A stretch of 64,000 bases of DNA from an uncultured Fibrella sp. (GCF_964250085.1 NZ_CAXUEC010000013.1:5101-69100), one strand, 5' to 3'; shown: positions 2,214 to 64,000, counted from the first letter of the stretch. The notes: generated from the sequence alone by a model not told the origin. Program-made: numbers and translations.

Positions 2214-3227
2214 TTACCAGAGGGCCTTAAACGGTTTGTAGGTTTCCATGCCCAGCAAATGCTTTTGCAACTTATAACACTCCAGCTTGACCAGGTGTCG
2301 GTAACTAACGCTACGCCCCAGCGACCGGTGCTTGATGGTCTCTTTCAGCAACTCGTCGAAACCCTGAACAAACCGTTTACGGGCGGCTTCCTTCATCACG
2401 CACCCGCCCACCTCCACCCGAAAGTCCGACGGTTGCAACTGCCGTTTGTTGATCATCCGAAAAATGAGTCGGTCAACCAGAATTGGCTTGAATACCTCGG
2501 CCAGGTCGAGTGCCAGTGAGTACCGCCTTGCGCCCGGCTCGTGCAGGAAACTGATCGTCGGGTTCAACTGGGTGTGGTAGATCGTACCCAGGCAGGCCGT
2601 GTAACAGAGCATATTGCCGAATGAGATCAGGGCGTTCAGTTCGTTCTGCGGTGGTCGTTTGCTTCGTCCGTCCATCGTGAAGGTAGCGCCCACAATGGCG
2701 TCGAAACAATCGTAGTAGGTCTGACGAATATTACCTTCAATGCCCATCAGCATAGGTACGTCGGTGGTGGCAGGTACGTTGGCCAATAGGCCTTCGATGG
2801 TCGCAATGGCCTGGCCTAGGTCTTTGGCATTGTCGCGGCTGTGGTGGTATTTCAGCACCCGCAGAATATTACAGGCGGCTCCTTCTACAAACGCCTGCGC
2901 CACCACCATCCGCTTTTTGGCCGCCATATAATGCTTTGTCTGCTCTACCTGCATTTTCCCCGCCAGCAGGTATTCGCGGGGCATGAACGAGCCGGTGTAG
3001 TGTTCGTAGTAGTTGAAAAAGTGGACAGCAATGCCTTCCTGACCCAGGAAATTGTAGAGCGCACTATTAGCGTCGAGGTTGCCAAACACGTACAGATCCG
3101 ACACCTGCTCAACGGGCAGAAAGCGCGGCGTTCCTTCCACGCCGTTCTCATCTACGGGCGTAAACTTTAGCGTATTGTCCTGCCGACTCATGCGCCCCGG
3201 ATTCATCAGGTATTTGGTCTGTTTCAT
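2214..3227 (-). CDS. cas1: CRISPR-associated endonuclease Cas1 (type I-B style)
   Basis: The ORF is open to 3290, but the start is placed at MKQTKYLMNPGRMSRQDNTLKF, an N-terminus typical of I-B Cas1. The C-terminal helical-domain motif SLALDLAEVFKPILVDRL is present. The 3290 start would overlap cas4 by 29 nt. Confidence 0.93.
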   Translation of the reverse strand: MKQTKYLMNPGRMSRQDNTLKFTPVDENGVEGTPRFLPVEQVSDLYVFGNLDANSALYNFLGQEGIAVHFFNYYEHYTGSFMPREYLLAGKMQVEQTKHYMAAKKRMVVAQAFVEGAACNILRVLKYHHSRDNAKDLGQAIATIEGLLANVPATTDVPMLMGIEGNIRQTYYDCFDAIVGATFTMDGRSKRPPQNELNALISFGNMLCYTACLGTIYHTQLNPTISFLHEPGARRYSLALDLAEVFKPILVDRLIFRMINKRQLQPSDFRVEVGGCVMKEAARKRFVQGFDELLKETIKHRSLGRSVSYRHLVKLECYKLQKHLLGMETYKPFKALW

Positions 3228-3261
3228 AAACGTGGGATGGCTTGTGTTTTTCGACTCGAAT

Positions 3262-3768
3262 TCAGTCCTCCTCGGTGTAGCAAAAGTCAAAGTAGCTGCA
3301 CGACCGGCATTTGGATTTCGTCAGCCGGGGCGGACATTGCTCACTGTCTGTTAGCTGCTCAATGGCACGTACCCAGCCTTCTACCACCGGTACGTCCTCC
3401 TCTGTCAGCGTAACCGTCTGCGTTTGCCGAAGCTTGGGGTATTCGATCAGCCCTGTAGCGCCCTCGATCCCATTTTTACGCAGCAGATACAGGTAGAACT
3501 GCACCTGTGCCACCGTGGCGGGCTCAAACTTGTCTGACTTTTTGATCTCATGCACGACCTTGTCATATGGGTCATAAAAATCAATCTTCGACCCATCCAA
3601 TAGGATTTCGCGATACCGTTCAGCGCGTTGAGGATAGGCAAATTCATGTAATTGCTTTCCTTCGCTGACCAGCTCCGAGTTGTGTTCCATACGGATATGG
3701 TTGGCATGCAGCCAGAGTTCACGTTGGCAGATGTGGTACATTCCGATGAGTGAGCCAGTAACGGTCAT
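3262..3768 (-). CDS. cas4: CRISPR-associated exonuclease Cas4 (RecB-like, Fe-S cluster)
   Basis: 168 aa with an N-terminal Cys (HICQRE) and a C-terminal CRSCSYFDFC cysteine cluster. The nuclease motif DFYDP...VHEIKK is present. Confidence 0.92.
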   Translation of the reverse strand: MTVTGSLIGMYHICQRELWLHANHIRMEHNSELVSEGKQLHEFAYPQRAERYREILLDGSKIDFYDPYDKVVHEIKKSDKFEPATVAQVQFYLYLLRKNGIEGATGLIEYPKLRQTQTVTLTEEDVPVVEGWVRAIEQLTDSEQCPPRLTKSKCRSCSYFDFCYTEED

Positions 3769-3780
3769 ACGTGCTTGGAT

Positions 3781-6549
3781 TTAGAGTATTGCGTTTTCAG
3801 AAGACTCAAACCGGCTTTGATCAAGCCCAGTCTTGTAATCGTAGACTTCATCATAGTGCTTCAAGTACAGATAATCTTCAAATCCATCTTCGGCCGGACC
3901 CGTAAAGCGTGGCCGTAGTTCGTTTTTTAACTTATCAGTATGGAAAATCGAAAACGTAAACTTCGACAGAATACCCTGCATGATTTTTTTGCTCACTTGC
4001 GATTCAGTCATACCCATTTTCATGTCGTTCAACTGGCGATACAAGGTCCAAACGCTTACCCCATTCACCTCTTTATTACCGGTAGAATAGCATTGATGAT
4101 GGTTCAGAAAGCCAAGTTCGGCTTCTGAGAAAATGGTCTCGTATTTATCTTCCTGTTCACCCTCAACTTTGATTGGCAACGACAAAGGCACAAATACAGA
4201 CAGGTTGCGCTGTTCGATCAACTGGAAGTCCTTGTGAATCGCTTCGTAATCAAGCTGCTGAACACTAGGCAGGTATTTTGTTGAAAAATTATCAATACCA
4301 ACCTTCTGGTTTAGATTATTACGCCCGGCCAATACCTGATTGTAAAGGCGACCAAAATCTTTGGTTTCTAAAATAGCACGGTGGTCAGTTATGGTCAGTT
4401 TGTCGCGGGTAATATCAAACCGGTCGTCGTGCTTGTACAAGATGCCTGGCTCATTGAGCTTGAACAGGAATACGTCACAGACATCCTTCGTTACATTACG
4501 GTTTACCCGACCCGCCAACTGTTCGTCGCTGTCGATGAGCGAGATGTTTTTGAAACCGAGGTCCATATCAATGTCCACCCCGGCTTCAACCACCTGTGTC
4601 GTGATGAGCAACACTTTTTGCGGGTTCTCCTTCTTGCCCTCTCGTTTTAGGAAATTGATAATTTCGCGCCGACGTGGTTCCAGTATTGTACCGGACAGCA
4701 CAAAGACCGTATCAAAAAACTCATGGCCAATCTGATTGGCAAATTCAGTAGCCGACTTTTTATAGATGAACTCAATGATCGTAAACACGCGTCCGCCGTG
4801 TTCATTGGCGTATGACTGAGATTCGGCCAAAACGGCTCTACCCAGTTCAATAGGCTCAATAGTCCGTGCTTTGCCATTGGCGCCTTCCAGCAAATCGAAG
4901 CGAAACCGTACCCGATTGCTAAAGTTAGGGTTCTGGAAATACCATTTGGCATCCGGTAACAGATTCTCAAATTTGGGGGGATTGGTCAACCCAATAGTTA
5001 GCCCGTCGATGCGTGGTAATGTGGCCGACATCAGCACAAACCGGATATTAAACGCACGGCTATAGTGGTCAAGCCAGAACAGCATCTTATCCCAATGTTT
5101 TGGTGGGTAAGACTGCAACTCATCAATCACGACTACCGAGTTAGCAAGCCGGTGCATGAGGTAAATGCTGTCCTTTTCGTTCGATTTCAGGATGTCGAAG
5201 AATCGAATGTGCGTTAGCAGACAGACAGGGAAAAATGCGAACAGATTGGCTAACTGATTTTTCCACTGTTTGCCATAGTTGCTTTCTAACTCGGCAGGTA
5301 CGTCCTCACGCTGTTGAAAGCCGCCCCGCGAATGCAATAGACCCATCTGTGAATCATCTAACTGCCAAGTATCGCGGAGTGCCTGATGAGTCTGCGTAAT
5401 GAGCGTTGTGAACGGAAAAACATAAAAAACCTTATTCAACGATGGGTCCAGCCGGAGCAATTCCGCCGTTACCACCGCCGATATATTTGTTTTACCGCCC
5501 CCTGTTGGTGCTTCGAGGTAAAACAACCGCTGATTTTGGTATTGCCGCACTTGCCGAATGGCTTGCACGGCCATCTCTAAACGCAGCAGGTTCAGCGTTT
5601 CGTTATTGCGTTCGATGGGTACGGTCGGCTGCCATGCCGGGTCATCGGCTAACCGAAATGCGTCGGTATTGTAGGATTTGCTACTTCGGGCGGCGTCGAT
5701 CAGTTTAGTCCGTAATTCATGTGTCAGCACCCCAAAATCGTTTATGCCCGACTGATTCATATACTCTGATGTCGCTAAGTAATCGGCGGCTGTGAGCAGT
5801 GAGAAGTTGAGCCTAAGCAAAGCAAGAATAGAAAATGCATCGGTAGTGTCTTCAATGAACGTATCCCAGATGGCTTGCCACTCGTTAAAGTAGAAAGTTG
5901 AGACATCAGGCGAAGAGAACTGATAAAGAGCTAAGTAGGCTTCCAGCTTATCAGCCAGTTTCAAGACCTGACTACGACCAATTCGACGTTGTGGCGGTTC
6001 AAAGCGTGAGCTGTGATGAAGGAAAATAGGGTTTGTGAACAGCAATGCCACTGCTGAAAGCCAAACGCGCTCGTCCTCTGGCAGGTCTATCAACGTTTGC
6101 TCAATGCGTTCCAGGTGATAGACTGCAAAAATGTAAGCACTCAGTTCTGAGTGGCCGTGGGCAGGTTGTAGCAACGGTGGGTACGTGGCTTGAAATAAAC
6201 TATTCTGCATCCGTTCTTTCTGGAAGTGCTCGTTCACTTTGCCAAAATCATGGAACGCAGTAGCTCCGATAAACAGATCGAGAATATACGCCCGCAACAC
6301 AGGCTGGTGAACTTCTGGACGGGTCGATACCAAGTGGTCAATCAATTGTTCAACCAGTGGAGAAAGGCCATGTTCGATACTTAACCGCTTGGCCAGCCGA
6401 AGTACCACATCCATATGCTCTGCCAATGTTTCATCTGCCACCGACCCAGCCATTTGGGTACCAGGCCGGTGGGCCAGATAATTTTTGTGCTCAGTTAAAC
6501 AGGTGTCTACCCGCAATGCCTGGTCAAACTGAGTCAGTAGGTTCAGCAT
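3781..6549 (-). CDS. cas3: Cas3 fused HD nuclease / SF2 helicase
   Basis: 922 aa. Contains an N-terminal HD motif (FHDFGKVNEHF), Walker A (EAPTGGGKTN), a DExQ box (VVIDELQSY) and motif III (LMSATLP). Confidence 0.95.
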   Translation of the reverse strand: MLNLLTQFDQALRVDTCLTEHKNYLAHRPGTQMAGSVADETLAEHMDVVLRLAKRLSIEHGLSPLVEQLIDHLVSTRPEVHQPVLRAYILDLFIGATAFHDFGKVNEHFQKERMQNSLFQATYPPLLQPAHGHSELSAYIFAVYHLERIEQTLIDLPEDERVWLSAVALLFTNPIFLHHSSRFEPPQRRIGRSQVLKLADKLEAYLALYQFSSPDVSTFYFNEWQAIWDTFIEDTTDAFSILALLRLNFSLLTAADYLATSEYMNQSGINDFGVLTHELRTKLIDAARSSKSYNTDAFRLADDPAWQPTVPIERNNETLNLLRLEMAVQAIRQVRQYQNQRLFYLEAPTGGGKTNISAVVTAELLRLDPSLNKVFYVFPFTTLITQTHQALRDTWQLDDSQMGLLHSRGGFQQREDVPAELESNYGKQWKNQLANLFAFFPVCLLTHIRFFDILKSNEKDSIYLMHRLANSVVVIDELQSYPPKHWDKMLFWLDHYSRAFNIRFVLMSATLPRIDGLTIGLTNPPKFENLLPDAKWYFQNPNFSNRVRFRFDLLEGANGKARTIEPIELGRAVLAESQSYANEHGGRVFTIIEFIYKKSATEFANQIGHEFFDTVFVLSGTILEPRRREIINFLKREGKKENPQKVLLITTQVVEAGVDIDMDLGFKNISLIDSDEQLAGRVNRNVTKDVCDVFLFKLNEPGILYKHDDRFDITRDKLTITDHRAILETKDFGRLYNQVLAGRNNLNQKVGIDNFSTKYLPSVQQLDYEAIHKDFQLIEQRNLSVFVPLSLPIKVEGEQEDKYETIFSEAELGFLNHHQCYSTGNKEVNGVSVWTLYRQLNDMKMGMTESQVSKKIMQGILSKFTFSIFHTDKLKNELRPRFTGPAEDGFEDYLYLKHYDEVYDYKTGLDQSRFESSENAIL

Positions 6550-6552: not shown

Positions 6553-7395
6553 TCAGAATAGTTGTATGATTCGCTTTGCACCTTCTGAATCGCTGACCTC
6601 ATATAAATCATCAATCTGCGTTCCAGCCTGTAATGTCCAGTCTGTAAAAGCAAACTCAGCTAGTTCGTATTGCATCAACCGCTCATCAAAGCCAACAGGT
6701 AATCGCTCAAAATAGCTGAATGTAGATCGGTTCGATATTGTTCTTGTTGAGGGTGAAATGCGGGGTTTCTGTCGTTGTCTTCTTATCGGGTATTCTCTTA
6801 TAAAAAGTGACGAAATTGTAAAATCTGTTTTAGTGCTAAATTGGTCTATTGTATATTCTGTCGTGCGCTCCCACCAGGCAGTGAACTCGTTCTTGCCCAG
6901 GTATGGTACAAACTCCGCTTCCTGGTTTCGGATACGAGTAAGCAATCTGCCCTGAACTTCGTCGGCTTCGTTTAAGAGCACATACACCCGGTAAGCTGGT
7001 GAACGTAGCGTACTCTCCTGCACAATTAGGGTGCCGTCGACGTTGGCGTAACCGACGGTGTTGGTGTAGGTAATGGCCGTTTTAGTGAAGTTTCCCCGTT
7101 CGTGATAGAGCGGTTCGATACCCACCGGTACCGACTTTAGCAACTTGTAATATTCTGGCCACTGTCCCTTTTTTTCGTAGCCTTTCAAGCCTGCAATAGC
7201 TCCCATAACACCCAGTAAAGCCGGTTTATGGAGCATATTATAAGAGAGTTGCAGCCCGTCATTCACGTCGGGCTTTCGAAAAAAACCAAAGTCAGCCCGC
7301 AAATCGAACGAAATCAACCGCAGGCTTTCAGGCTTTCTCTCCGGCACAGGTACGTTGCTTGTTCCGGTGAAATCGAGCGTCATCTGATCGGTCAT
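6553..7395 (-). CDS. cas5: Cas5 (type I-B)
   Basis: 280 aa with the N-terminal Cas5 motif LRADFGFFRKPDVN. It overlaps cas7 by 4 nt (ATGA) and sits between cas7 and cas3. Confidence 0.85.
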   Translation of the reverse strand: MTDQMTLDFTGTSNVPVPERKPESLRLISFDLRADFGFFRKPDVNDGLQLSYNMLHKPALLGVMGAIAGLKGYEKKGQWPEYYKLLKSVPVGIEPLYHERGNFTKTAITYTNTVGYANVDGTLIVQESTLRSPAYRVYVLLNEADEVQGRLLTRIRNQEAEFVPYLGKNEFTAWWERTTEYTIDQFSTKTDFTISSLFIREYPIRRQRQKPRISPSTRTISNRSTFSYFERLPVGFDERLMQYELAEFAFTDWTLQAGTQIDDLYEVSDSEGAKRIIQLF

Positions 7396-10926: not shown

Positions 10927-11724
10927 TCAGCCACTTACCCCCACACACCCAAATCCTTCCGCGTTATATCTACCTACACCAGCCAGTAACGCTACTTCCA
11001 ATACCTCGGTGGGGCCGCGTAACTCGAAGTCGACGTTGTACCAGCCGCGTAGCTTGGTCTCCTGCGGGCTGCCTTCCTTGATCGTCACCAGCCTTGATCG
11101 GATTAGACTCGCTTTGGTAAGGGGCTTGTATGAAAAATCACCCAACTCAGGTACGTTGTCCCCGTTATTCGTCCCGGTTTGGATGCTCCGATACTTGTCG
11201 ATTAGGTTAATCAGTAGGAGCGGGCCGAAGGCGTCGTCGTATGGATGCAGGTACTGGTCCATTCCCGTTTCATCTTTTTCGGCTATGACAATGGGCGATA
11301 GGGTCCGTACCGTCAGCACGTTCGTCAGCGGAGGCAACGGTAGGGTTTCTACGCGCTCCACGGTGAAGTCGGCGCGGAGGTGGCGGTTCATCAGCGTCAG
11401 TTGCTGATCCTGAAACAGGCCGATGATAAACACTTCGGCGGCTTTTTCAACGTAAAAACTGATTGTCCAATCAACGATGGGCGAGGTAAGCACAAAACAG
11501 CCTTCGCGGGGACGTACCTCATAGCCGTGCATCCTGAAGTCAGAGAACGTAAAGAGCCGGAACGTTTTACGGCCCGCCTGATAGCCTTGGCCGTGTAAAA
11601 ATTCGGTATAGGCCGTATCCGCATCGGCCAGCACGCGGTAGAGCCAGCCCGTTAGCAGGTATTGGTAGTTGAACGGAATCCGGGTTGAAGGTTCAGCGGC
11701 AAGCAGACGAAGAGTAAACTGCAT
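10927..11724 (-). CDS. cas6: Cas6 pre-crRNA endoribonuclease
   Basis: 265 aa with the C-terminal glycine-rich loop GVGRYNAEGFGCVGV characteristic of Cas6. It is located in the cas locus. Confidence 0.88.
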   Translation of the reverse strand: MQFTLRLLAAEPSTRIPFNYQYLLTGWLYRVLADADTAYTEFLHGQGYQAGRKTFRLFTFSDFRMHGYEVRPREGCFVLTSPIVDWTISFYVEKAAEVFIIGLFQDQQLTLMNRHLRADFTVERVETLPLPPLTNVLTVRTLSPIVIAEKDETGMDQYLHPYDDAFGPLLLINLIDKYRSIQTGTNNGDNVPELGDFSYKPLTKASLIRSRLVTIKEGSPQETKLRGWYNVDFELRGPTEVLEVALLAGVGRYNAEGFGCVGVSG

Positions 11725-11841: not shown

Positions 11842-12843
11842 ATGCCAGTTATAAAAAATCGGGAAGATCGGTTGCAGCGTATCAATGCCCGACTTAACCG
11901 ATGGGGAGGGCGCCCCGCTTCGACTCAGGAGCTGGCCCGACTATGTCAGGTGTCGGAGTCGGCCATTAAGCAGGATATCGCCTATCTGAAAGATTGCCAC
12001 GCCGCCCCGATTGCCTACAACCGGAAAGCCAAAGGCTATTACTACACGAAACCGTTTGATCTGGCCGCCTCTATCACGCTTACCGACCAGGATATGGTGG
12101 CGTTGCAGGCGGCCGTGGCTACGCTCAACCAGTTTCGGGAACTGTCGGTCTTCGCTGACTTTCGGGGGGCGGTGGATAAAATTGGGCAGGCGGTTCGTTT
12201 TCGGCTGGGTCAGGCAACCAATGCCCGGTCACTTATTGCGTTTGAATCGGCACCAGCGGGGCGGGGTAGCGAGTTGATCGAGCCGATGCTGGAAGCTTGC
12301 CTGCACGGTCGGCCTGTACAGTTTCGCCATCGTAAATACACGGACGCACAAGCCCGGCAACGGGTTATCTTCCCCTACGTTGTAAAGGAGCATCGCAACC
12401 GCTGGTACGTTGTTGGCTTTGATGAGTACAGGCAGGAAGTTCGGGTATTTGGCCTGGATCGTATCGAGGTCGACTCTGTCGTGGTATTGGATCAGGAGCA
12501 TCTGCTGGTAGCACAAGCGCCGCCATTCGATACTGCCATGTACTTCCGTCAGGCACTGGGTGTAGCCATTTATAGCCAGCCGCCCGAAGAAATAGTGCTG
12601 CTGCTCCGGGCACCCGAAAACCATCAGTTCAAAGCGCAGCCATTCTTTCCCCACGCGCCAACGGATATGTTGCTGGATACGCCCGACGAGTTACAGGTAC
12701 GTCTGACGATCATTATTAACGACGAGCTGATCTACGAACTGGCCAGATTGGGACCGAAAGTGCGCGTTATTTCACCGCTTTCACTTCAGCAAAAGCTGGT
12801 GACGTACCTGCGTGACGCCATTGACCAGTATGAATCGCGCTGA
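11842..12843 (+). CDS. HTH + WYL domain transcriptional regulator
   Basis: 333 aa. Contains an N-terminal HTH (STQELARLCQVSESAIKQDIAYLK) and a WYL motif (RNRWYVVGFDEYRQEVRVFGLDRI). It is divergent from cas6 with a 117-bp gap. Confidence 0.88.
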   Translation: MPVIKNREDRLQRINARLNRWGGRPASTQELARLCQVSESAIKQDIAYLKDCHAAPIAYNRKAKGYYYTKPFDLAASITLTDQDMVALQAAVATLNQFRELSVFADFRGAVDKIGQAVRFRLGQATNARSLIAFESAPAGRGSELIEPMLEACLHGRPVQFRHRKYTDAQARQRVIFPYVVKEHRNRWYVVGFDEYRQEVRVFGLDRIEVDSVVVLDQEHLLVAQAPPFDTAMYFRQALGVAIYSQPPEEIVLLLRAPENHQFKAQPFFPHAPTDMLLDTPDELQVRLTIIINDELIYELARLGPKVRVISPLSLQQKLVTYLRDAIDQYESR

Positions 12844-14945: not shown

Positions 14946-15044
14946 ATCAGTTATCAGTTATCAATTAGGCTTTCTAGTAGTAAACGTACCTGAGCAACGC
15001 TGATAATTGATAATTGATCATTGATAACTGTTAATTGTTCATTA
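14946..15044. repeat. heptad-periodic inverted-repeat element
   Basis: The left arm is ATCAGTT ATCAGTT ATCAATT (14946-14966). The right arm is TGATAAT TGATAAT TGATCAT TGATAAC TGTTAAT TGTTCAT (15001-15042). The arms are partly complementary, and the loop carries AACGTACCTG (14983-14992). The element abuts the stop codon of the 15045 gene. Confidence 0.7.
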
Positions 15045-15557: not shown

Positions 15558-15860
15558 ATGATTCTTTACAACATTACGTATAACATCGACCAGCAGATCG
15601 AGCGCGAGTGGCTGCGTTGGATGAAAGATGAACACGTACCTGCCGTGGTGGCTACCGGCCTTACCATGCAGAATAACGCGCTGAAACTACTGACCGAGAT
15701 CGAAAACGGCGGTGCTACCTACACCTTCCAGTACTGGTTTCAGACCATGGAAGATTTTGTTACCTACCAGAGTCTGCATCAACCCGCCCTGCAACAACAG
15801 GTGGCTGACCGGTATGCCAACCGGTATGTATCCTTCCGCACCCTGCTGGAGGAGATATGA
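15558..15860 (+). CDS. DUF4286-like protein
   Basis: 100 aa. MILYNITYNIDQQIEREWLRWMKDEHVP matches my recollection of the DUF4286 N-terminus. Confidence 0.55.
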   Translation: MILYNITYNIDQQIEREWLRWMKDEHVPAVVATGLTMQNNALKLLTEIENGGATYTFQYWFQTMEDFVTYQSLHQPALQQQVADRYANRYVSFRTLLEEI

Positions 15861-16945: not shown

Positions 16946-17467
16946 CTACTGTAGATAAACACCCTCACGAGCCGAATCGCTCAGAATAACGTCTACGTGT
17001 TCGTTGAGGGTAGTGGCCAGTTCCAGGCCGATGAAGTCGGCGGCAATGGGGAAGCGCGGGTGATTGCGGTTCACCAGCACAGCCACCTGTATCTTCCGAA
17101 CGGGCACCGACAGAAACGGCTGGAGACTGAACGCCAGCGTCCGGCCCGAATACAGCACGTCGTCGATCAGCACCACCACGCGGTCGGTGTACGTACCTGA
17201 TCCGCCGGGTAATTGAATGTTGGGCTGGGCCTTCTGCGTTTTGTCGAGCTCGATCTGAACAAGGGTGACCGAAAAAGGGGCAATCTGCCGCAGTTCGTCG
17301 GCAATGCGTCGAGCCAGTTCATACCCTTCACCGGCCACGCCGGCCAGTACCAGGGCGGCCTCGTCGAAATTGGTCTCGTATAATTGACTGGCGATGCGGC
17401 GAATTTTCTGGCGGATCTGGTCGGCCGATAAAATTTGTACGGGATTCATTAGCAAAGACCCGGCCAA
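16946..17467 (-). CDS. phosphoribosyltransferase family protein (PyrR-like)
   Basis: 173 aa with the PRPP-binding loop VVVLIDDVLYSGRT and PyrR-like ...VAVLVNRNHPRFPIAADFIG. Confidence 0.65.
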   Translation of the reverse strand: MAGSLLMNPVQILSADQIRQKIRRIASQLYETNFDEAALVLAGVAGEGYELARRIADELRQIAPFSVTLVQIELDKTQKAQPNIQLPGGSGTYTDRVVVLIDDVLYSGRTLAFSLQPFLSVPVRKIQVAVLVNRNHPRFPIAADFIGLELATTLNEHVDVILSDSAREGVYLQ

Positions 17468-35613: not shown

Positions 35614-35659
35614 ACGCAACGTACCTGACCGCTGTTTATTCAGCAGCACGTTTATCAAC

Positions 35660-36268: not shown

Positions 36269-36273
36269 CGTAC

Positions 36274-53887: not shown

Positions 53888-54436
53888 TTGACGCACTTTC
53901 AATTAAACACCTGCCTGCTTCGGCCCTGGCGCGAGGGTGATGAAGAACCCCTTTCCCGCCATGCCAGTAACCGGAATATTTGGAACTGGGTCCGCGATTT
54001 TTTTCCGTATCCCTACAGCATTCGTGATGCGTCGGCCTGGGTACGTTCCAATCGTACATCTCAACTGCCTAACAATCTGGCTATTGAGGTAGATGGCGAA
54101 GCCGTTGGCAACGTTGGTTTCACCGTTCGCGACGACATTTACCGCTTCAACGCAGAAGTGGGTTATTGGCTCTCCGAAAAATACTGGGGGCGAGGCATTA
54201 TTTCGGAAGTAATGCCCATTCTGGTCGATTATATTTTCAAGAATTCGCAGGTTAATCGCATCTATGCCTGTGTGTTAGAGGGGAACGAAGGATCGATGCG
54301 GGTACTGGAGCGGGCACACTTCCGGCATGAAGCGATTCACCGAAAAGCGGCCGTTAAAAACAACCATTTTCTCGACGAGCATATCTATGCCATGTTGCGC
54401 GAGGAATACCGTGCGCGCAAAAACCAACTTTCATAA
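53888..54436 (+). CDS. GNAT family N-acetyltransferase (RimJ/RimL-like)
   Basis: 182 aa: LRPWREGDEEPL..., WGRGIISEV and the general GNAT layout. Confidence 0.8.
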   Translation: MTHFQLNTCLLRPWREGDEEPLSRHASNRNIWNWVRDFFPYPYSIRDASAWVRSNRTSQLPNNLAIEVDGEAVGNVGFTVRDDIYRFNAEVGYWLSEKYWGRGIISEVMPILVDYIFKNSQVNRIYACVLEGNEGSMRVLERAHFRHEAIHRKAAVKNNHFLDEHIYAMLREEYRARKNQLS

Positions 54437-55198: not shown

Positions 55199-56256
55199 GT
55201 TTTACCGGCGCTGATGTACTGATTGTTGGGCAGGGCGTAGCCGGTTCGGTATTGGCCTGGACGTTGCATCAACGGGGGTTTTCGGTTCACATCGTATCGT
55301 CGCCCGAATTGCCGTCTGCCTCATCCGTAGCGGCAGGCATCGTGAATCCGTTGACGGGCCGGAAGCTCGTTAAAACCTGGGAAGCCGACCGGCTTTTTCC
55401 GTACCTGCACCGGTTTTATACCGGATTGGCAAATCAACTGAATACATCGTTTTTTACCCCGCTCGACGTCTATCGGCCCTATCGCGATGAAGCTGAACGA
55501 AGACTGTATCAGACCATTGCTGCTGACCCTGAACTGCAACCGTATTTTCAACCGGCCATCAACGATGCGGCATATTCAGCCGTAATTAACAACCCCTTCG
55601 GCGGCATTCAGGTAATGCAGGCAGGGTGGGTCGATCTGCCCGCTTTTACTGCCGCCGTTCGTGACTATTTTATTGACAAACAGTTGTTTACATACGGGCA
55701 GGTACGTTCGGATGACTTGCAGACTCGCCCTGATTCGGTAACGTACCTGGGGAAAACGTATAGGTACGTCATCTTCTCTGAAGGACCACATGGGCAGGCA
55801 AATCCGTTCTTTAGTGCGTTGCCCTATAACGTGGTGAAAGGCGAAATTCTGACTGCCGAAGTCGCCGATTACCCGCTCACGAACATCGTCAATCAGGGTA
55901 TTTTCATCATGCCGCTGTCGGCTACGCGCATCCGTATCGGGGCAACCTATTCGTGGCACGAGCTAGACTGGAAAACAACCGATGTGGGTCGGTCGTTTTT
56001 AGAAACGAAGGCGCGTGCATTGCTCAGGATACCGTTTACCGTCGTTGATCAGCGGGCCGGTATTCGCCCATCGACTGTTGATCGTCGTCCATTTGTGGGG
56101 TGGCACCAAACGTACCCATCCGTCGGTATATTTGGTGGAATGGGCACGAAAGGGGTATCGTTGGCCCCTTATCTGGCCCACGATTTGGCCGACCATCTGG
56201 CGTTGGGTAAAGAAATCAATCCGGCGGTGAATATTAGCCGTTTTCATTCGTTATAA
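55195..56256 (+). CDS. FAD-dependent oxidoreductase (DAO family)
   Basis: The start is MSFTGADVLIVGQGVAGSVLA (dinucleotide-binding GxGxxG). The ATG overlaps the cmk stop (ATGA). Confidence 0.8.
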   Translation: MSFTGADVLIVGQGVAGSVLAWTLHQRGFSVHIVSSPELPSASSVAAGIVNPLTGRKLVKTWEADRLFPYLHRFYTGLANQLNTSFFTPLDVYRPYRDEAERRLYQTIAADPELQPYFQPAINDAAYSAVINNPFGGIQVMQAGWVDLPAFTAAVRDYFIDKQLFTYGQVRSDDLQTRPDSVTYLGKTYRYVIFSEGPHGQANPFFSALPYNVVKGEILTAEVADYPLTNIVNQGIFIMPLSATRIRIGATYSWHELDWKTTDVGRSFLETKARALLRIPFTVVDQRAGIRPSTVDRRPFVGWHQTYPSVGIFGGMGTKGVSLAPYLAHDLADHLALGKEINPAVNISRFHSL

Positions 56257-56279: not shown

Positions 56280-59200
56280 ATGCTTATGCGTCAGTTGTAT
56301 ATCCTTTCATTACTGTGCCTGGGGCTGGGTACGTCGGCGTGGGCTCAGAATTATCCATCGCTTGAACAGTTTGGCAAGAACCGGATTCAATACCGCACGT
56401 TCGGGTGGAAGACAGTGCGCACGTCGAATTTCGAGATTTACTTCTACGAAGACGGTGAGCAACTGGCTAACCTGGCTGCGCAATATGCCGAGTCTGATTT
56501 TGATCGCATCACCGAACTGCTGGGGTACACGCCGTACAACCGGATCAAAATATTCCTGTACAATTCACCGCAGGAACTGGCTCAAAGCAACATTGGCGTC
56601 ACTACACTTGGCGAGCTGACCCGTCGTGAACTGGACCTGTCGAAGTCGCGGGTGGAACTGGCCTTCTCGGGCGATCAGGTAAGCTTCAGGAAAGAGTTAT
56701 TGCGCAACGTCACTATGCTGTTTGTCTATGACATGCTGTATGGTGGAAGCCTGAAAGACGCTCTTCAAAGTTCGCTACTGCTGACGTTGCCTGACTGGTT
56801 CATGCCAGGAATGGCGGCTTATGTGGCCGAAGGGTGGAGCGCCGAGCTGGATGATTACATGCGCGACGTCTCAATCAACGACCCTGTTCGTAAACCGTCT
56901 ACCTTGTCGGGCATTGATGCCGAGCGGGTTGGGCAGTCGATCTGGAATTACATCGGGCAAAAATATGGCCGCGACAATATTTCCAATATTCTGAACCTGA
57001 CCCGGATTATCCGCAACGAGCAGAGCAGTATTCAGAGTACGCTCGGTATCCCGTATAACCGATTCCTCCGCGACTGGCGCGATTACTACGCCGGACAGGC
57101 CGCCCCGTTTGCGGGCGCTTTCAAGACAAACGCTGATGATTTCCGAATTACGCTGTCTAGTTCTAAAACGCCCGTTCAGTTAAATAGCTTAAAACTGAGC
57201 CCTGACAAGGCGTTTCTTGCGTATACTACCGTACGCGATGGTAAGTACAACGTGGAGGTTGTGAACACGGCTACCCGGAAAAAGTACAGTTTGATGTCGG
57301 GCGGGTACCGGCTCGATGGGTTGTCTTACAAACCGAATATGCCTCTGGTTGCCTGGCAACGGGATAATCAACTGGTTGTTTTGCTGGAGGAAAGAGGCCG
57401 TCCGTTCCTATATATATATAGCGGTTTAGAAAAACGACCCAAGCGGGTGCTGAGTCAGGCGATTAGCGGACTGGCACAGGTGACCAGCATGGACGCCTCG
57501 GCCGATGGCGGCAGCCTCGTGTTTAGCGCCGTGCGCAAGGGGCAAAATGATTTGTTCCTCTACAGCGTAAACCGGAATAATTACCAGCAACTGACCAACG
57601 ATTTGTACGATGATCTGCAACCCCGGTTTGTGGGCCGGTCGGGTCGGCAAATTGTATTTTCGTCGAACCGGCTGCTCGATACACTTAATGTAGACAAAGG
57701 CACATACAAGTCGATTCGTGACCAGTTCAGCATTTACACCATTGACGGCAATCCACGCGTAGCGTCGGTGCGGCGGTTAACCGACTCTACCCATCGGGCC
57801 GTGGCACCGATCAGCAACAGTGAGAATGTGCTTTATTACGTCAGTGAGCAGACGGGTATTCGGAACCTCTACAAACGCCTGATCGACGAACAAACCGAAA
57901 CGGCCGTAACAGCGTTGCCCACCGGAATTATGCAGTATGATTACCTGCCGGCCAACGGTGGCTTCGCCTACAGCAGCATTCAGGATGGTACGCTTTACGT
58001 TGGCTTCCGATCGAAATTGCCGGATGCAGAAACCGCACTACCCATCACCCAGCGGGCAACAGCTATGGGATTGCGGGCGGCCCGGCCCGTGCCAAAACAG
58101 GCTCCTATCGTTCGCGACAGTGCACTAGCCGTTCGGGACACAACGGCCAAACCAACGCCAGCCGTTTCGGCTACGGTAGCTTCTACCCTCCCCAAAATGG
58201 CCCTGTTACCGGGTGAAGTGGATACAGATCAATACGAATTTGATCCTGACGTATTGAAAGCGGCCGAGTACCGCCAGCGGCGGGCTGCTGCCACGGCTGC
58301 GCAGGCCACCGTTCCGGGTCTGAACGCACCACTTCCCCGGAATCGTCGTCGCGAGAGTGTTACCGTACGCGGTCCGTTCGCCTATAAAGGCTTGTTTGTC
58401 ATGAACGACGCCAGTTCGAACTGGCGTATTGACCCGGTTCGGGGCTTTGGGTACGTTCAGAACATAGCCCTGAATGATCTCCTGGAGAATCATATTGTGA
58501 AGGCGGGTGTGTTTATCACGACGAACCTGAAGAACAGCGATTTGTGGGCTGAATACCAGAACCTGAAATACCGCGTGGATTATGGCGTGCGGGTCGACCG
58601 GCAGACGTTATTTTTAGATGCCGGGGAGTTCAGTCAGCGGTTCCGATATAACAAAGTTTCGTTGACGGCTTCGTACCCGATCTCGGTCAACACCCGTTTC
58701 TCGGTATCGCCGTTTTATGCCCTCACACGGCAAATCGACCTGTCGTTTCAAGGGCAGGGGCAACCCGACGCCGTATCTGACTATGCTGGTGCCCGTGCCG
58801 AAGTGGTCTTCGATAATACGAAAGTCAACGGGATGAACATGATCGAAGGAACGCGGTTCAAACTCAAATACGAGAATTATACCGGCCTGCGTGGCATCAA
58901 CGAGTCGTTCAACCGCCTCACGGCTGATATCCGGCATTACCAGCATATTCACCGTGATCTGGTTTTAGCCTTGCGGCTGTCGTATGGGCAATCGGGTGGC
59001 GATGCGCCCAAACAGAGTGCTGTGGGGGGGATGGAAAACTGGATCAATAACCAGAAAGAGCAAACCGCCACTAACCCGCTCCTGATCTCGGAAGTGCGCA
59101 ACAACATTCGTGATCTGTTCTTCCTGGATTTTGCCGCGCCGCTACGCGGGTTCCGTCAGGGCAAACTGGTAGGCACAAGCCACCTGCTGTTCAATGCCGA

Positions 59201-60290: not shown

Positions 60291-63200
60291 ATGAATGATC
60301 TATTTCTACAAAACCAGTTCTTACGCCGAATAAGCTCCTTTTGGGCTTATTTACTTGCGTTCCTGCATAGGTACACTGGTTCGTCTACCTCACCGGGCGC
60401 GTCCGTATTTCGGCGGGCTTCAGTAGCGTTAAGTATGCTACTGTGCCTGGCTACGGGCGCTTACGCCCAAACTCCGGTCGTCAATCTGAAACTCGAGAAG
60501 ACGATTAGTAATGCTTCTCCAGCATTGGGCGATGTGATCACCTATACGGTTGCAGTAACCAATACAGGTTCGGCCACGGCGACCAGTGTTGTGGTCAGTG
60601 AGTCGATGACGGCTGGCTTATCCACTTACCTATCATCAACGGCGGGAGTTGGCTCGTTTACATTCAATGTTAATACCTTCACTGGTAGTTGGACCATTGG
60701 ATCAATAAATCCTGGTCAGACGGTAACGCTGCTCATTACTGCCAGAGTTGATGGTGAAGGAGTTTCCTTCAACTCCGCTGAGGTCGCTTCTATGGATGGC
60801 ACGGACGTTAACTCTACTCCGGGTAATGGCTCACTGGTTGAAGATGATTATGACAATGCTTGTTTCTCTGTACCCCTCACCTGGTATACGGGCGACGAGT
60901 ATATCGTTGATAAACCCGCTGGCTTTACAGCCGTTACCTGGCTCATAAATGGCAACCCGATTTCGGCCACAACTACTGAGGCAAGCGTTGATGCATCCGG
61001 TAACCTTACAATTAAGGCTCCCGGAATATATTCATTTACGGGCAAGCTGAATGGATGCGACGTTAGCAACTGTTGTAATATTCTGGTTAATCCAGGTGTA
61101 ACTGCCAGTTTGGGCGATTACGTATTTGAAGATAAGAACGCCAATGGCATTCAGGACACGGGTGACACGGCAATTCCCGGTGTTACCGTAACGCTGTTCC
61201 TTAATGGTACAGCCGTGGCTACTACTACCACTAACAGTGCCGGCCTTTACTCGTTTACAGGGTTGACGCCAGGAACAAGTAATAGCTACACCGTTGGTTT
61301 TACAGCACCCGCTGGCTACACAACAACGACACCATTATCAGGAACAGATTCGGCGAAGAATTCAGACGCCGGCGCTGACCTGTTGACAGGTCGTAGCTTG
61401 TCTGTGACTTTAATCGCCGGTGAAAACAACCTAACCATTGATGCTGGTTACTATAAACCTGCTTCACTGGGCGACTACGTGTTCAACGACAAAAACCGGG
61501 ATGGTATTCAGAATGCAGGAGATACGCCAATTCAGGGTGTGTTGGTGACGCTATACCAAAACGGTAGCGCAGTCGGTACTACACTAACTGACATAAATGG
61601 TTTGTACTCGTTTACGGGCCTGACGCCAGGTACGTCGAATACCTATAGCGTTGGCTTCGGCAAGCCATCTGGTTTCGAGTCGACTTCGGCCAACATCGGT
61701 TTCGACGGCCTGGATTCGGATGCCAATCCGATCACGGGGCTGACCACAGGGCTGACCCTGAGCAGCGGCGAGAGCAACACGTCGGTGGATGCTGGTTTCT
61801 ATCAGCCAACGGCGGGTCTGGGCGACTATGTCTTTGAAGACAAGAATGCCAACGGCATCCAGGATGCGGGCGACGTGCCGATCCCAGGGGTACTGGTGAC
61901 CTTGTACTCAAGTGGTTCCGCCATTGGCACTACTTCGACGGACGCTAACGGCTTGTACAGCTTCACGGGTCTGACGCCAGGCACTCCTTACGTGGTGGGC
62001 TTCGGTCAACCGGCTGGGTTTGTACCCACGGCGGCCAACACGGGCAGCAACGACGCCATCGATTCGGATGCGGGCGTGGGTGGTCTGACGGGAGTGTATA
62101 GCCTGACAGCCAACGAGTTCAACCCAACGGTGGACGCTGGTTTCTTCCGGCCTGCTTCCCTGGGTGACTACGTCTTCAACGACACCAACCGCGACGGAGT
62201 ACAGAACGCGGGCGACAGTCCGATTCCAGGAGTCGTGGTAACGCTCTACCAGAACGGTAGTGCGGTAGCCACAACGACGACGAATGCTAACGGTCTATAC
62301 TCGTTCACGGGTCTGACGCCTGGTTCGAGCAACAGCTATAGTGTTGGCTTCACGGCTCCGGCTGGCTACTCGGCCACCAATCCGCTGTCGGGCACCAACA
62401 CGGCTCTGGACTCGGATGCCAATCCGTTGACGGGTCTGACTCAATCGGTGACTCTGTCATCGGGCGAGAGCAACACGACTATCGACGCGGGCTTCTTCCA
62501 GCCAACGGCGGGTCTGGGCGACTATGTCTTTGAAGACAAGAATGCCAACGGCATCCAGGATGCGGGCGACGTGCCGATCCCAGGGGTACTGGTGACCTTG
62601 TACTCAAGTGGTTCCGCCATTGGCACTACTTCGACGGACGCTAACGGCTTGTACAGCTTCACGGGTCTGACGCCAGGCACTCCTTACGTGGTGGGCTTCG
62701 GTCAACCGGCTGGGTTTGTACCCACGGCGGCCAACACGGGCAGCAACGACGCCATCGATTCGGATGCGGGTGTAGGTGGTCTGACGGGAGTGTATAGCCT
62801 GACGGCCAATGAGTTCAACCCAACGGTGGACGCTGGTTTCTTCCGGCCTGCGTCCCTGGGTGACTACGTCTTCAACGATACCAATCGCGACGGAGTACAG
62901 AACGCAGGCGATAGCCCGATTCCAGGAGTCGTGGTAACGCTCTACCAGAACGGTAGTGCGGTAGCCACAACGACGACGAATGCTAACGGTCTATACTCGT
63001 TCACGGGTCTGACGCCTGGTTCGAGCAACAGCTATAGTGTTGGCTTCACGGCTCCGGCTGGCTACTCGGCCACCAATCCGCTGTCGGGCACCAACACGGC
63101 TCTGGACTCGGATGCCAATCCGTTGACGGGTCTGACTCAATCGGTGACTCTGTCATCGGGCGAGAGCAACACCACTATCGATGCGGGCTTCTTCCAGCCA

Positions 63201-64000
63201 ACGGCGGGTCTGGGCGACTATGTGTTTGAAGACAAGAACGCCAACGGCATCCAGGATGCGGGCGACGTGCCGATCCCGGGTGTGCTGGTGACCTTGTATT
63301 TGAATGGCAGTGCGGTCGCCGCTACAACGACTACTGTATCTGGTGGCTATAGTTTTACAGGGCTGGCTTCTGGGTCGCAGAATGTCTATCAGGTTGGCTT
63401 CGCTGCCCCGGCTGGTTTCATAACAACGGGAGCTAACGTGGGCAGTAATGACGCTATCAACTCTGATGTGTCGATGGTTACTGGCCGCACAGGTACGTAT
63501 ACGCTGGTAGCGGGTGATTTTAACCCAACGGTCGACGCTGGTTTCTTCCGGCCTGCTTCTATTGGTGATTACGTCTTCAATGATAAAGACAAAGACGGTG
63601 TTCAGTCGCCGGGTGATACCCCGATTCCAGGTGTGGTAGTTGTTCTGTATCAGAATGGTACACCGGTAGCAACCACTACTACGGACGCAACGGGTAACTA
63701 CTCATTCACTGGTCTGACACCAGGTACGTCGAATACCTATAGTGTGGGCTTTACAACACCAACTGGGTTTACGGCAACTAATCCATTATCAGGCACCAAT
63801 ACGGCCCTGGACTCGGATATTAATCCAGTTACAGGTCGTAGCCAGAACCTGACCTTATCATCAGGCGAAAGCAATACAACCATCGATGGTGGATTTATCC
63901 AGCAAACAGCGGGTCTGGGCGACTATGTCTTTGAGGACAAGAATGCCAACGGTATCCAGGATGCGGGCGACGTGCCGATCCCAGGTGTGCTGGTGACCTT
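60291..64000 (+). CDS. giant surface/adhesin-like protein: DUF11 domain plus at least 9 SdrD-B-like (Cna-B type) repeats, 3-prime end outside the window
   Basis: The frame is open from 59937 to the window end, with ATGs at 59958, 60183, 60291 and about 60435. The signal peptide is RRASVALSMLLCLATGAYAQ. The DUF11 signature is LEKTISNASPALGDVITYTVAVTNTGSATATSVVVSE. The reiterated repeat unit is LGDYVF(E/N)D.N..G.Q..GD.PI.GV.VTLY.NGSAV..T.T...G.YSFTGLTPG. The start codon is uncertain. Confidence 0.85.
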   Translation, partial: MNDLFLQNQFLRRISSFWAYLLAFLHRYTGSSTSPGASVFRRASVALSMLLCLATGAYAQTPVVNLKLEKTISNASPALGDVITYTVAVTNTGSATATSVVVSESMTAGLSTYLSSTAGVGSFTFNVNTFTGSWTIGSINPGQTVTLLITARVDGEGVSFNSAEVASMDGTDVNSTPGNGSLVEDDYDNACFSVPLTWYTGDEYIVDKPAGFTAVTWLINGNPISATTTEASVDASGNLTIKAPGIYSFTGKLNGCDVSNCCNILVNPGVTASLGDYVFEDKNANGIQDTGDTAIPGVTVTLFLNGTAVATTTTNSAGLYSFTGLTPGTSNSYTVGFTAPAGYTTTTPLSGTDSAKNSDAGADLLTGRSLSVTLIAGENNLTIDAGYYKPASLGDYVFNDKNRDGIQNAGDTPIQGVLVTLYQNGSAVGTTLTDINGLYSFTGLTPGTSNTYSVGFGKPSGFESTSANIGFDGLDSDANPITGLTTGLTLSSGESNTSVDAGFYQPTAGLGDYVFEDKNANGIQDAGDVPIPGVLVTLYSSGSAIGTTSTDANGLYSFTGLTPGTPYVVGFGQPAGFVPTAANTGSNDAIDSDAGVGGLTGVYSLTANEFNPTVDAGFFRPASLGDYVFNDTNRDGVQNAGDSPIPGVVVTLYQNGSAVATTTTNANGLYSFTGLTPGSSNSYSVGFTAPAGYSATNPLSGTNTALDSDANPLTGLTQSVTLSSGESNTTIDAGFFQPTAGLGDYVFEDKNANGIQDAGDVPIPGVLVTLYSSGSAIGTTSTDANGLYSFTGLTPGTPYVVGFGQPAGFVPTAANTGSNDAIDSDAGVGGLTGVYSLTANEFNPTVDAGFFRPASLGDYVFNDTNRDGVQNAGDSPIPGVVVTLYQNGSAVATTTTNANGLYSFTGLTPGSSNSYSVGFTAPAGYSATNPLSGTNTALDSDANPLTGLTQSVTLSSGESNTTIDAGFFQPTAGLGDYVFEDKNANGIQDAGDVPIPGVLVTLYLNGSAVAATTTTVSGGYSFTGLASGSQNVYQVGFAAPAGFITTGANVGSNDAINSDVSMVTGRTGTYTLVAGDFNPTVDAGFFRPASIGDYVFNDKDKDGVQSPGDTPIPGVVVVLYQNGTPVATTTTDATGNYSFTGLTPGTSNTYSVGFTTPTGFTATNPLSGTNTALDSDINPVTGRSQNLTLSSGESNTTIDGGFIQQTAGLGDYVFEDKNANGIQDAGDVPIPGVLVT
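61803..63194 (+). repeat. two tandem 696-bp units (232 codons each) inside the adhesin gene
   Basis: 61803-62498 and 62499-63194 differ at 12 of 696 positions. A third, more diverged unit starts at 63195. Confidence 0.95.

Follow-up and report, generated by a model that had tools for sequence, protein, structure and literature searches.

The question raised by this stretch of DNA, a window of 64,000 nt from an uncultured Fibrella sp. (GCF_964250085.1 NZ_CAXUEC010000013.1:5101-69100), is why one short word built on the heptamer ACGTACC recurs throughout it, and what might read it. The genes of the window are ordinary chromosomal genes adjoining a type I-B CRISPR-Cas locus. The initial annotation had counted by eye 45 copies of the 8-mer ACGTACCT/AGGTACGT, 37 of the 9-mer ACGTACCTG and 30 of RACGTACCTG. 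Exact searches returned the same three numbers, with 23 of the 8-mers on the plus and 22 on the minus strand, and every position was correct except 48967, which is truly 48968. The variant ACGTACCC, put at about 19 copies, is present 20 times and is mostly ACGTACCCA, that is, the CA form of the step described below. Leaving the CRISPR repeats out of the count, as had been done, changes nothing, since these carry TCGTACCT, and the array TCGTACCTG, and not the 8-mer.

The over-representation that the annotation proposed is borne out by each informative null model. Dinucleotide shuffles gave 1.41 +/- 1.05 copies of the 8-mer ACGTACCT with a maximum of 4, and 0.36 copies of ACGTACCTG were expected, an enrichment of 30- to 100-fold (45 vs 1.4; 37 vs 0.36). 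The heptamer core itself occurs 72 times (34 on the plus and 38 on the minus strand) in 62 kb, where 7.39 +/- 2.55 copies were expected. Markov models of orders 0 to 4 fitted to the window itself put the expected number of ACGTACCTG copies at 0.4 to 2.0 and leave the excess standing; the maximal-order model advised by the annotation is uninformative above k = 7, because the heptamer already holds the excess and the 8- and 9-mers then look "explained" by their sub-words. Shuffling synonymous codons inside genes yielded 4.3 +/- 2.1 copies against 42 coding 8-mers, and a dicodon shuffle, which keeps protein, codon usage and dinucleotides exactly fixed in each gene, 13.2 +/- 2.4 (z = 11.9); over the protein-preserving nulls as a whole z was 12 to 18, and the excess thus outlives the shuffles that were to decide the matter. 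Two sites, 61628 and 63722, share identical 12-nt flanks and lie in repeated SdrD-B domains of one gene, and are therefore not independent.

The invariant unit is not RACGTACCTG, as was first suggested, but the heptamer ACGTACC, followed by a pyrimidine-purine (YR) step. The dinucleotide 3' of the core is TG at 37, CA at 17, TA at 7 and CG at 3 window sites, that is, YR at 64 of 72. On chromosomes the step is TG in 48% and CA in 22% of cases and YR in 83%, vs 46% YR on plasmids; the three plasmids of Fibrella sp. ES10-3-2-2 were read as well (accessions from PMC11354047). Since the YR preference is much weaker on plasmids, core and extension seem to accumulate at different rates. Position -1 is A or G in 37 of the 45 8-mer sites, and beyond -1 and +7/+8 the aligned window sites have background composition. 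As no conservation reaches past -1 and the two 3' bases, the word is not part of a longer repeat, and its identity with repetitive extragenic palindromic elements, miniature inverted-repeat transposable elements or another dispersed repeat was rejected: there is no longer consensus, and 92% of the copies are coding. Neither ACGTACC nor ACGTACCTG is self-complementary.

Single-base variants of ACGTACCTG are essentially absent. Over 427 kb of Fibrella-clade DNA the core was found 479 times vs 56 expected under a third-order Markov model trained on word-masked sequence, and what slight excess of one-mismatch forms there is falls mostly at positions 1, 6 and 7, ACGTACT alone reaching an observed-to-expected ratio (O/E) of 2.7. 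Specificity is thus high in the middle of the word and lower towards its ends. ACGTACC, with RACGTACC before TG or CA as its optimal form, is a genome-wide signature word of one Fibrella/Fibrivirga subclade. CpG methylation and deamination were rejected as the source of the TG/CA extension; the window shows no shortage of CpG (O/E 1.15), so that the scarcity of CG as the step next to the core is peculiar to the word. Avoidance of overlapping palindromes was likewise set aside: GGTACC is not avoided in the window (11 vs 12.8) and CGTACG is only mildly under-represented (8 vs 18.1 +/- 4.7).

By the open reading frame (ORF) calls of this analysis the window is 92% coding, and 42 of the 45 8-mers lie in genes and 3 between them, 20 of the coding copies being on the sense and 22 on the antisense strand. 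The annotation had reported the motif from genes and spacers, in all three reading frames and in both orientations relative to transcription (about 19 versus 22). Five of the six frames are used, the sixth of which would need TGx, and the peptides encoded are [N/D/H]-V-P (13), Q-V-R (8), x-G-T-x (8), T-Y-L (7) and R-Y-V (6). The spread over frames, the balance of sense and antisense and the codon-level shuffles support the opinion that protein selection or codon usage is an unlikely cause. In plasmid sequence totalling 262 kb the core occupies all six frames (sense 51/39/46, antisense 51/29/50), and 25 of 291 copies (8.6%) are intergenic vs 11.7% of non-coding sequence. With 92 to 93% of copies coding, the distribution is proportional to coding density. 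The word is neither a repeat element nor a by-product of coding.

No orientation skew was detected in the window, nor a switch of orientation along it, nor any skew on the plasmids (114/120 on the complete 212-kb plasmid and 28/29 on plasmid 3), and the argument drawn from this against a polar signal of the Chi or FtsK-orienting polar sequence (KOPS) type stands. The spacing of sites fits random placement, the variance/mean ratio being 0.3 to 0.9 in all binnings with the evenness non-significant. In 391 kb of window, plasmid and clade loci, a possible structural signal was seen in convergent pairs of the form ACGTACC N5-93 GGTACGT (within 100 nt), of which there were 23 where 11.7 would be expected (p = 0.002); the numbers of divergent pairs (10) and of pairs in direct orientation (24 vs 23.8) were at expectation. 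The convergent core pairs are mostly inside genes, for example 3367/3389, 22382/22411, 41546/41587 and 55741/55763 in the window. One inverted pair only (36268/36305) lies between convergent genes, and it has no match in the terminator scan.

The source of the window is, judged from its proteins, a species of Fibrella/Fibrivirga (Spirosomataceae, Cytophagales): its RecG is 93 to 97% identical to the protein cluster named Fibrella spp. and Fibrivirga algicola, and its S46 peptidase shares 90% identity with the F. arboris and F. aquatica enzymes. Exact-sequence look-ups of the RecG proteins of the window and of F. aestuarina had no match. Three metagenomic loci of the Fibrella clade together with F. 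algicola carry 0.45 to 0.86 8-mers per kb. There are 27 cores in 22 kb of F. algicola and 26 in the locus of F. aestuarina BUZ 2, where ACGTACCYR occurs 21 times vs 0.72 expected, and for word-positive loci overall the range is 0.45 to 1.2 per kb. F. rubiginis displays no enrichment (5 cores vs 2.1 expected). The annotation had advised looking for the word in related genera; enrichment is indeed found within the Fibrella clade but not in Nibrella, two Spirosoma loci or Arsenicibacter. Among the matches listed in a contig scan by RecG alignment, 80 RecG loci across Bacteroidota, including Dyadobacter, Runella, Arcicella, Pontibacter and Hymenobacter, had 0 to 1 8-mer each, a broad sample which gives good negative controls and poor resolution within the Spirosomataceae. 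The lineage restriction is clear, and gain or loss of the word took place inside one genus. Assemblies made independently of one another, from isolates and from metagenomes, contain this same word, in part at orthologous positions.

Compared with F. algicola (80% nucleotide identity), the core is kept at 17 of 35 sites vs 25% of random 7-mers (p = 0.002). Two smaller samples, from the related loci L084 and L081, gave 3 of 18 vs a background of 19% and 2 of 6 vs 27%, respectively, so that for L084, which is more distant than F. algicola, conservation is at background. Of the 11 8-mers not shared with L084, 8 differ at three or more positions vs 26% of background 8-mers. Several sites were made by multiple synonymous changes, as when GAT GTG CCG became GAC GTA CCT (both D-V-P), or CGC the rare Arg codon AGG, and some by conservative replacements such as K/Q to R. 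At four orthologous sites position 8 reads T in the window and C in relatives. From these alignments it appears that existing sites are partly maintained and that new ones keep arising at tolerant positions.

The 212-kb plasmid of ES10-3-2-2 bears 234 cores vs 22 expected, or 1.10 per kb, and plasmid 3 bears 1.14 per kb. By class, density is 1.6 per kb in conjugation genes, about 1.2 in defence islands (prokaryotic Argonaute (pAgo), cyclic-oligonucleotide-based antiphage signalling system (CBASS), AbiE) and 0.9 in the cas operon of the window, vs a background level of 0 to 0.2 in Tn3/IS3 transposons and the rep region, where the remainder has 1.1 to 1.6. Plasmid genes with counterparts on Spirosoma or Hymenobacter plasmids (28.8 kb, 65 to 79% identity) contain 17 cores in their Fibrella versions and 1 in the others. 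When 2.9 million viral contigs were searched without bias for the 9-mer in convergent pairs, 20 contigs were recovered, near the rough chance estimate of 20 to 45. The single word-rich viral match was a provirus of F. aestuarina BUZ 2 (IMG/VR UViG_2561511197_000001; portal FAES_1823, endolysin, HNH endonuclease) with 14 cores in 13.4 kb, its 1.04 per kb being the density of the host chromosome. The word lies in every kind of long-resident DNA: chromosomal, cas, defence and conjugation genes, megaplasmids and prophage. Homologues of the provirus portal are present in Fibrivirga, Larkinella, Tellurirhabdus, Spirosoma and Nibrella.

Plasmid 2 of ES10-3-2-2 (CP155473) has at 27.6-35.8 kb a series of repeat units of about 430 bp with small ORFs (DUF6252, DUF6678, hypotheticals), which adjoins a serine-recombinase gene. 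Each unit holds a pair of ACGTACCTGAG sites, separated by about 170 nt, fixed in position and all in one orientation, among many GACAG-containing iteron-like repeats, giving about 20 copies of the word in one orientation over 8 kb. The repeat region had no Rfam match. It is the sole place where the word stands in a defined larger element, and may point to a reader protein.

To our knowledge words of such strength have been described only for Neisseriaceae (DNA uptake sequences, DUS), Pasteurellaceae (uptake signal sequences, USS) and cyanobacteria (highly iterated palindrome 1, HIP1). The annotation knew of no counterpart in Bacteroidota, and full-text searches on the word, on Fibrella genomics and on uptake sequences in Bacteroidota/Cytophagales brought up no description of one. 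It had also likened the word to these three classes: the density, 0.7 to 1.2 per kb, agrees, but the copies are not concentrated in terminators and are as dense on plasmids and prophage. Like the USS (AAGTGCGGT, Apl-type variant), the Fibrella word has a non-palindromic core and less strict flanks, a density near one per kb, both orientations and a location mostly in genes; both occupy tolerant codon positions and accumulate after arrival of the DNA, the USS itself having lineage-specific variants and being absent from genes without homologues in relatives. Unlike the USS it belongs to another phylum, has a shorter, 7-nt core, no link to terminators, barely enriched one-mismatch forms and full density on plasmids and prophage. 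One-mismatch variants are commoner for the USS. With the DUS of Neisseriaceae (AT-GCCGTCTGAA and its dialects, bound by the minor pilin ComP) it shares hyper-abundance, lineage restriction, an excess of inverted pairs and, perhaps, a dialect in ACGTAGCG of Fibrisoma; among the DUS, related genera carry altered words (PMC3630211). Unlike the DUS it is 92 to 93% coding with no terminator bias, the proportion of copies in ORFs being 34.5% for the N. meningitidis DUS and 65% for the H. influenzae USS (PMC2817400).

HIP1 (GCGATCGC) resembles the word in its large excess and its spread through genes in all frames, and the I-B repeat of the window carries TCGTACCTG; a HIP1-like sequence lies inside a Synechocystis CRISPR repeat (PMC6604393). 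HIP1 is in 15- to 300-fold excess, at up to one copy per gene and in all frames, with sites conserved above background, which was taken as selection rather than neutral replenishment (PMC5861425). Long without an assigned role, it has been linked experimentally to transformation (10.1101/2024.09.10.611283; 10.64898/2026.06.24.733823), in the former case to methylation-dependent transformation. Unlike HIP1, a palindrome which is phylum-wide and has palindrome-specific orphan methyltransferases, ACGTACC lacks symmetry and does not extend beyond a part of one genus. Chi and KOPS are also short over-represented core-genome words, read by a DNA-processing machine, but the Fibrella word is unskewed and 10- to 100-fold enriched, whereas those polar motifs are skewed by strand with replication and modestly enriched, a few-fold in the case of Chi. 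In the Campylobacter CtsM/RAATTY system a short word, and only in its methylated state, labels self DNA for uptake; RAATTY, a short site of palindromic type, is common by composition and shows no 10- to 100-fold excess. A methyl tag of the CtsM type would reconcile the enzyme-like sharpness of the Fibrella word with a role in DNA exchange. The word fits no single family, lacking both the palindrome of HIP1 and the terminator bias typical of DUS/USS.

The strand symmetry and frame-blindness of the word, its sharp core with the YR step, its presence on all resident replicons, its restriction to a lineage and its maintenance and turnover together argue for a sequence-specific reader of duplex DNA and a directional process, be it drive or selection; it is from the orientation-independent spread across all resident DNA that we infer reading of the duplex by a predicted protein. 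The explanation which we rank first, and hold tentatively, is a lineage-specific tag of self-DNA of the DUS/USS/HIP1 kind. A lineage-specific protein would recognize the word with nearly the sharpness of a restriction enzyme, strictly at the central CGTA, more softly at the ends and next to a flexible YR step. Word-bearing DNA would be favoured in exchange or repair among kin, at uptake or at recombination, possibly only once the word is methylated. Alleles gaining the word would spread by molecular drive or weak selection and those losing it would be replaced, and the outcome would be a density near one per kb, sites conserved in part, a constant supply of new ones at tolerant codons and absence from newly arrived transposons. 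The mechanism would be the same as that of DUS/USS in Neisseriaceae and Pasteurellaceae, which is now being proposed for cyanobacterial HIP1. The published properties of coding-region uptake sequences match the Fibrella data on excess, spread and turnover (PMC2817400).

Several observations weigh against a self-DNA tag. There is no terminator preference, 3 of the 45 8-mers being intergenic where 8% of the DNA is non-coding, and about half of all DUS/USS copies, and more than 90% of those in inverted repeats, are in predicted terminators (10.1101/2025.10.24.684340). The 21 one-mismatch variants of the core have a mean O/E of about 1.1 over the 427 kb, and conservation above background was found in one of three species comparisons only. 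Megaplasmids, conjugation genes and prophage equal the chromosome in density, so that a process acting on all intracellular DNA explains the distribution at least as easily; mobile DNA of Neisseria and Haemophilus, unlike these Fibrella replicons, is poorer in uptake sequences. We know of no natural competence, uptake receptor or cognate methyltransferase in Fibrella. Neither competence genes nor a ComP-/ComN-type receptor were found in the 64-kb window, and the ES10-3-2-2 genome paper, which reports PacBio RSII reads for CP015317, makes no mention of competence or pili (PMC11354047).

Ranked behind the tag, and in our opinion rather unlikely, is neutral biased repair or conversion, of no use to the organism, in which a sequence-specific activity of the mismatch-repair or very-short-patch type, possibly linked to an ACGTACC-recognizing methyltransferase, would correct near-cognates to the word and let it build up passively in all the DNA copied in these cells. 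The equal density on chromosome, megaplasmids, prophage, defence islands and conjugation genes, with only very recent Tn3/IS3 elements lacking the word, is what such a process might produce, and the sharp, enzyme-like core also speaks for it, a 7-bp asymmetric core being typical of Type IIG/III-like recognition. The C/T flips at position 8 of orthologous sites agree with it, as does the identity of ACGTACT, the one clearly enriched one-off variant, with a C-to-T transition product; a methyltransferase-linked origin was proposed for HIP1 by Elhai (PMC4390886). Yet it needs one-mismatch precursors, which are neither depleted nor enriched overall, and many new sites differ from their orthologues at 3 to 4 of 8 positions. 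Equal core density on plasmids together with a YR frequency of 46% vs 83% does not fit a single uniform equilibrium process, CpG is not globally depleted, and the conservation of HIP1 sites has been read as selection (PMC5861425). We consider a coding or technical artefact, whether codon or peptide bias, a dispersed repeat, contamination or assembly error, scarcely credible. The protein-keeping shuffles do give 4.3 to 13 copies vs 1.4 for the dinucleotide shuffles, so that the proteins carry some imprint of the word, and two sites are in repeated protein domains, but z values of 12 to 18, the use of both orientations and five or six frames without shared flanks, and the recurrence of the word in assemblies obtained independently from isolates and metagenomes, in part at orthologous sites, all oppose it.

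A Chi-like signal, by which the word would attenuate a helicase-nuclease of the RecBCD/AddAB or another type, so that bearers survive breaks and recombine and word-less foreign DNA is degraded, is improbable. Full density on plasmids and prophage would be expected of replicon protection, and the action of HIP1 was described as "reminiscent of Chi" (10.1101/2024.09.10.611283). The one-orientation copies of CP155473, about 20 in 8 kb, would also suit it but are explained by tandem duplication of the unit, and neither the absence of skew (23/22 in the window, 114/120 on the 212-kb plasmid) nor a 10- to 100-fold excess is that of the few-fold enriched, replication-co-oriented Chi. We give as little weight to a binding site for an abundant nucleoid-associated or chromosome-organizing protein, with the YR step as a kink. 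Xu et al. proposed such a role for HIP1. Orientation-independent, evenly spread sites (variance/mean 0.3 to 0.9), the tendency of a flexible TG/CA step to follow the core and the two-fold excess of convergent pairs within 100 nt (p = 0.002) are consistent with this, but the evenness is not significant at the scale of the window, we know of no nucleoid protein that needs 7 invariant bases, and gain or loss of the word inside one genus (F. rubiginis) would be strange in a protein site of central architectural importance.

In a small survey other Cytophagales, too, seemed to possess their own words. In Fibrisoma limi BUZ 3 (CAIT01000007) the dispersed word ACGTAGCG occurs 10 times vs 0.67 expected, on both strands and without shared flanks; ACGTAGC occurs 16 times vs 2.3, ACGTACC is mildly raised (13 vs 2.5) and ACGTA is raised generally. 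On this one 22-kb locus ACGTAGCG is possibly a dialect of the Fibrella word. Pontibacter sp. H249 has AAAGTATA 19 times vs 1.4, dispersed on both strands without shared flanks, and a metagenome-assembled genome of an uncultured Hymenobacter has CCAGCAGG 23 times vs 1.0 in 14 kb, again on both strands and without shared flanks. Other Hymenobacter loci and a Hymenobacter plasmid have a weaker excess, about 7-fold, of GGCCAGCA/CCAGCAG. In Arundinibacter roseus a further candidate dialect, ACGTACAG, was found 7 times vs 0.28, a small number of copies and all on one strand of a 22-kb locus. No hyper-abundant word was detected on the Spirosoma linguale plasmid pSLIN01. Several top k-mers of other loci were rejected as tandem repeats, and so was a 16-mer of Arsenicibacter, which is a local array at one spot; in A. 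rosenii 38-bp tandem units and inverted copies around GGGCGACCACGTGGGG fill 12628-13438, one ORF/intergenic spot downstream of recG. We would regard it as speculative, and on balance doubtful, that Cytophagales lineages repeatedly evolve their own word (ACGTACC, ACGTAGCG, AAAGTATA, CCAGCAGG), each read with the sharpness of a restriction enzyme by a system peculiar to the lineage which would label resident DNA as self. Such a system might act through specific, possibly methyl-dependent, uptake or recombination independent of the proteobacterial DUS/USS, or through "missing-self" surveillance which disfavours word-less DNA.

Sites of the word in the window
Sequence	Positions	Strand	Remark
ACGTACCTA	2754..2761	-	in cas1, frame D-V-P
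ACGTACCTG	2772..2779	-	in cas1
core ACGTACC only	3367..3373	+	convergent pair with 3389
core ACGTACC only	3389..3395	-	convergent pair with 3367
ACGTACCTG	5296..5303	-	in cas3
core ACGTACC only	6180..6186	-	
ACGTACCTG	7348..7355	-	
ACGTACCTG	11149..11156	-	in cas6
ACGTACCTC	11512..11519	+	
core ACGTACC only	12404..12410	-	
ACGTACCTG	12695..12702	-	
ACGTACCTG	12802..12809	+	
ACGTACCTG	14984..14991	+	intergenic
ACGTACCTG	15634..15641	+	
ACGTACCTG	16387..16394	+	
core ACGTACC only	16833..16839	-	
ACGTACCTG	17191..17198	+	intergenic by the ORF calls of this analysis
core ACGTACC only	18192..18198	-	kept in F. algicola
ACGTACCTG	19258..19265	+	F. algicola: ACGTACCCG
core ACGTACC only	19443..19449	-	
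ACGTACCTG	20590..20597	+	F. algicola: ACGTACCCG
core only (ACGTACCCA)	22382..22388	+	convergent pair with 22410
ACGTACCTA	22410..22417	-	Arg AGG in window, CGC in F. algicola
ACGTACCTG	23345..23352	+	kept in F. algicola
ACGTACCTG	23598..23605	-	kept in F. algicola
core only (ACGTACCCA)	24079..24085	-	
ACGTACCTG	25397..25404	+	lineage-specific; relatives differ at 3-4 positions
core ACGTACC only	25539..25545	+	convergent pair with 25597
ACGTACCTG	25597..25604	-	GAC GTA CCT vs L084 GAT GTG CCG, both D-V-P
core ACGTACC only	27903..27909	+	in recG
ACGTACCTG	28091..28098	-	in recG; kept even in Fibrisoma limi (Q-V-R)
ACGTACCTA	29570..29577	+	relatives: ACGTACCCA
ACGTACCTG	30197..30204	-	
core ACGTACC only	30565..30571	+	
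core ACGTACC only	30740..30746	+	
ACGTACCTG	32212..32219	+	lineage-specific
ACGTACCTG	32794..32801	-	kept in F. algicola
ACGTACCTG	33134..33141	+	kept in F. algicola
ACGTACCTG	33972..33979	-	lineage-specific
ACGTACCTG	35619..35626	+	F. algicola: ACGTACCCG
core ACGTACC only	35799..35805	-	
ACGTACCTA	36268..36275	+	first base is last base of stop codon; convergent pair with 36305, between convergent genes
ACGTACCTG	36305..36312	-	kept in L084
core ACGTACC only	36600..36606	+	
ACGTACCTG	38799..38806	+	lineage-specific; AGG TAC GTT vs F. algicola CAG TAT GTA
core ACGTACC only	40303..40309	+	
ACGTACCTG	40634..40641	+	kept in F. algicola
ACGTACCTG	41546..41553	+	conserved; convergent pair with 41586
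ACGTACCTG	41586..41593	-	kept in F. algicola
core ACGTACC only	43233..43239	-	
core ACGTACC only	43290..43296	-	
ACGTACCTG	44970..44977	+	
core ACGTACC only	45837..45843	-	
ACGTACCTG	46108..46115	+	
core ACGTACC only	46481..46487	+	
core ACGTACC only	48796..48802	-	
core ACGTACC only	48881..48887	-	
ACGTACCTG	48968..48975	-	48967 in the initial annotation
core ACGTACC only	49424..49430	+	
ACGTACCTA	49913..49920	+	
ACGTACCTA	52572..52579	+	
ACGTACCTG	52898..52905	-	
core ACGTACC only	54040..54046	-	
ACGTACCTG	55700..55707	-	
ACGTACCTG	55741..55748	+	convergent pair with 55762
ACGTACCTA	55762..55769	-	
core ACGTACC only	56110..56116	+	
core ACGTACC only	56328..56334	-	
core ACGTACC only	58450..58456	-	
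ACGTACCTG	61628..61635	-	in repeated SdrD-B domain; flank as at 63722
ACGTACCTG	63491..63498	-	
ACGTACCTG	63722..63729	-	in repeated SdrD-B domain

The CRISPR array occupies positions 1-1730 of the window with at least 26 copies of the 30-nt repeat ATTTCAATTCCACTCAGGTACGATTAGAAG on the plus strand, the transcribed strand being probably the minus. The sequence TCGTACCTG in this repeat matches 8 of the 9 bases of the genome word without its invariant core, for which the chance estimate is about 0.005. The spacer GTACGAGGCGCTAGATAGCTGCATAGATTTAACCCC is present twice (1-36 and 465-500), seven repeat units apart. No protospacer was found among known phages, a metagenome scan for relatives of the repeat gave single matches only (read as chance) and no arrays, and the loci of relatives that were examined had no related array. 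From 1947 to 11724 the order is cas2, cas1, cas4, cas3, a Pfam-less ORF (6553-7395) at the cas5 position of type I-B, cas7, a large Pfam-less ORF (8343-10223) at the cas8b position, and cas6, a type I-B layout. A WYL/helix-turn-helix regulator gene follows at 11842-12843.

The ORF at 30000-30782, which overlaps the recG stop codon, has a weak match to IS200-like Y1 transposases at its C-terminus, an internal 33-nt tandem repeat (30459-30543, 2.6 copies) and 3 cores in 783 nt. At 34872-35216 there is a gene of the XisH family, best known with XisI from cyanobacteria; the syntenic L084 has a XisH-XisI pair at the same place.

The DUS, USS and HIP1 have all been traced, firmly or provisionally, to natural transformation and the recognition of kin DNA. 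If the word is such a tag, it would be a fourth independent case, in a soil member of the Bacteroidota, asymmetric like DUS/USS and, like HIP1, located inside genes and on all replicons. A tag for uptake or recombination would predict unrecognized natural competence in Cytophagales and would offer a practical handle for genetic manipulation, the word being put on donor DNA. Should the word be a by-product of repair or methylation, it would be an unusually clean natural experiment on sequence-specific molecular drive. A positive and a negative sister species (F. aestuarina vs F. rubiginis), cultured type strains and PacBio data exist. The word is also a sensitive marker by which plasmids, prophages and metagenomic contigs can be assigned to the Fibrella clade, and the words of other Cytophagales, if confirmed genome-wide, would widen the phenomenon.

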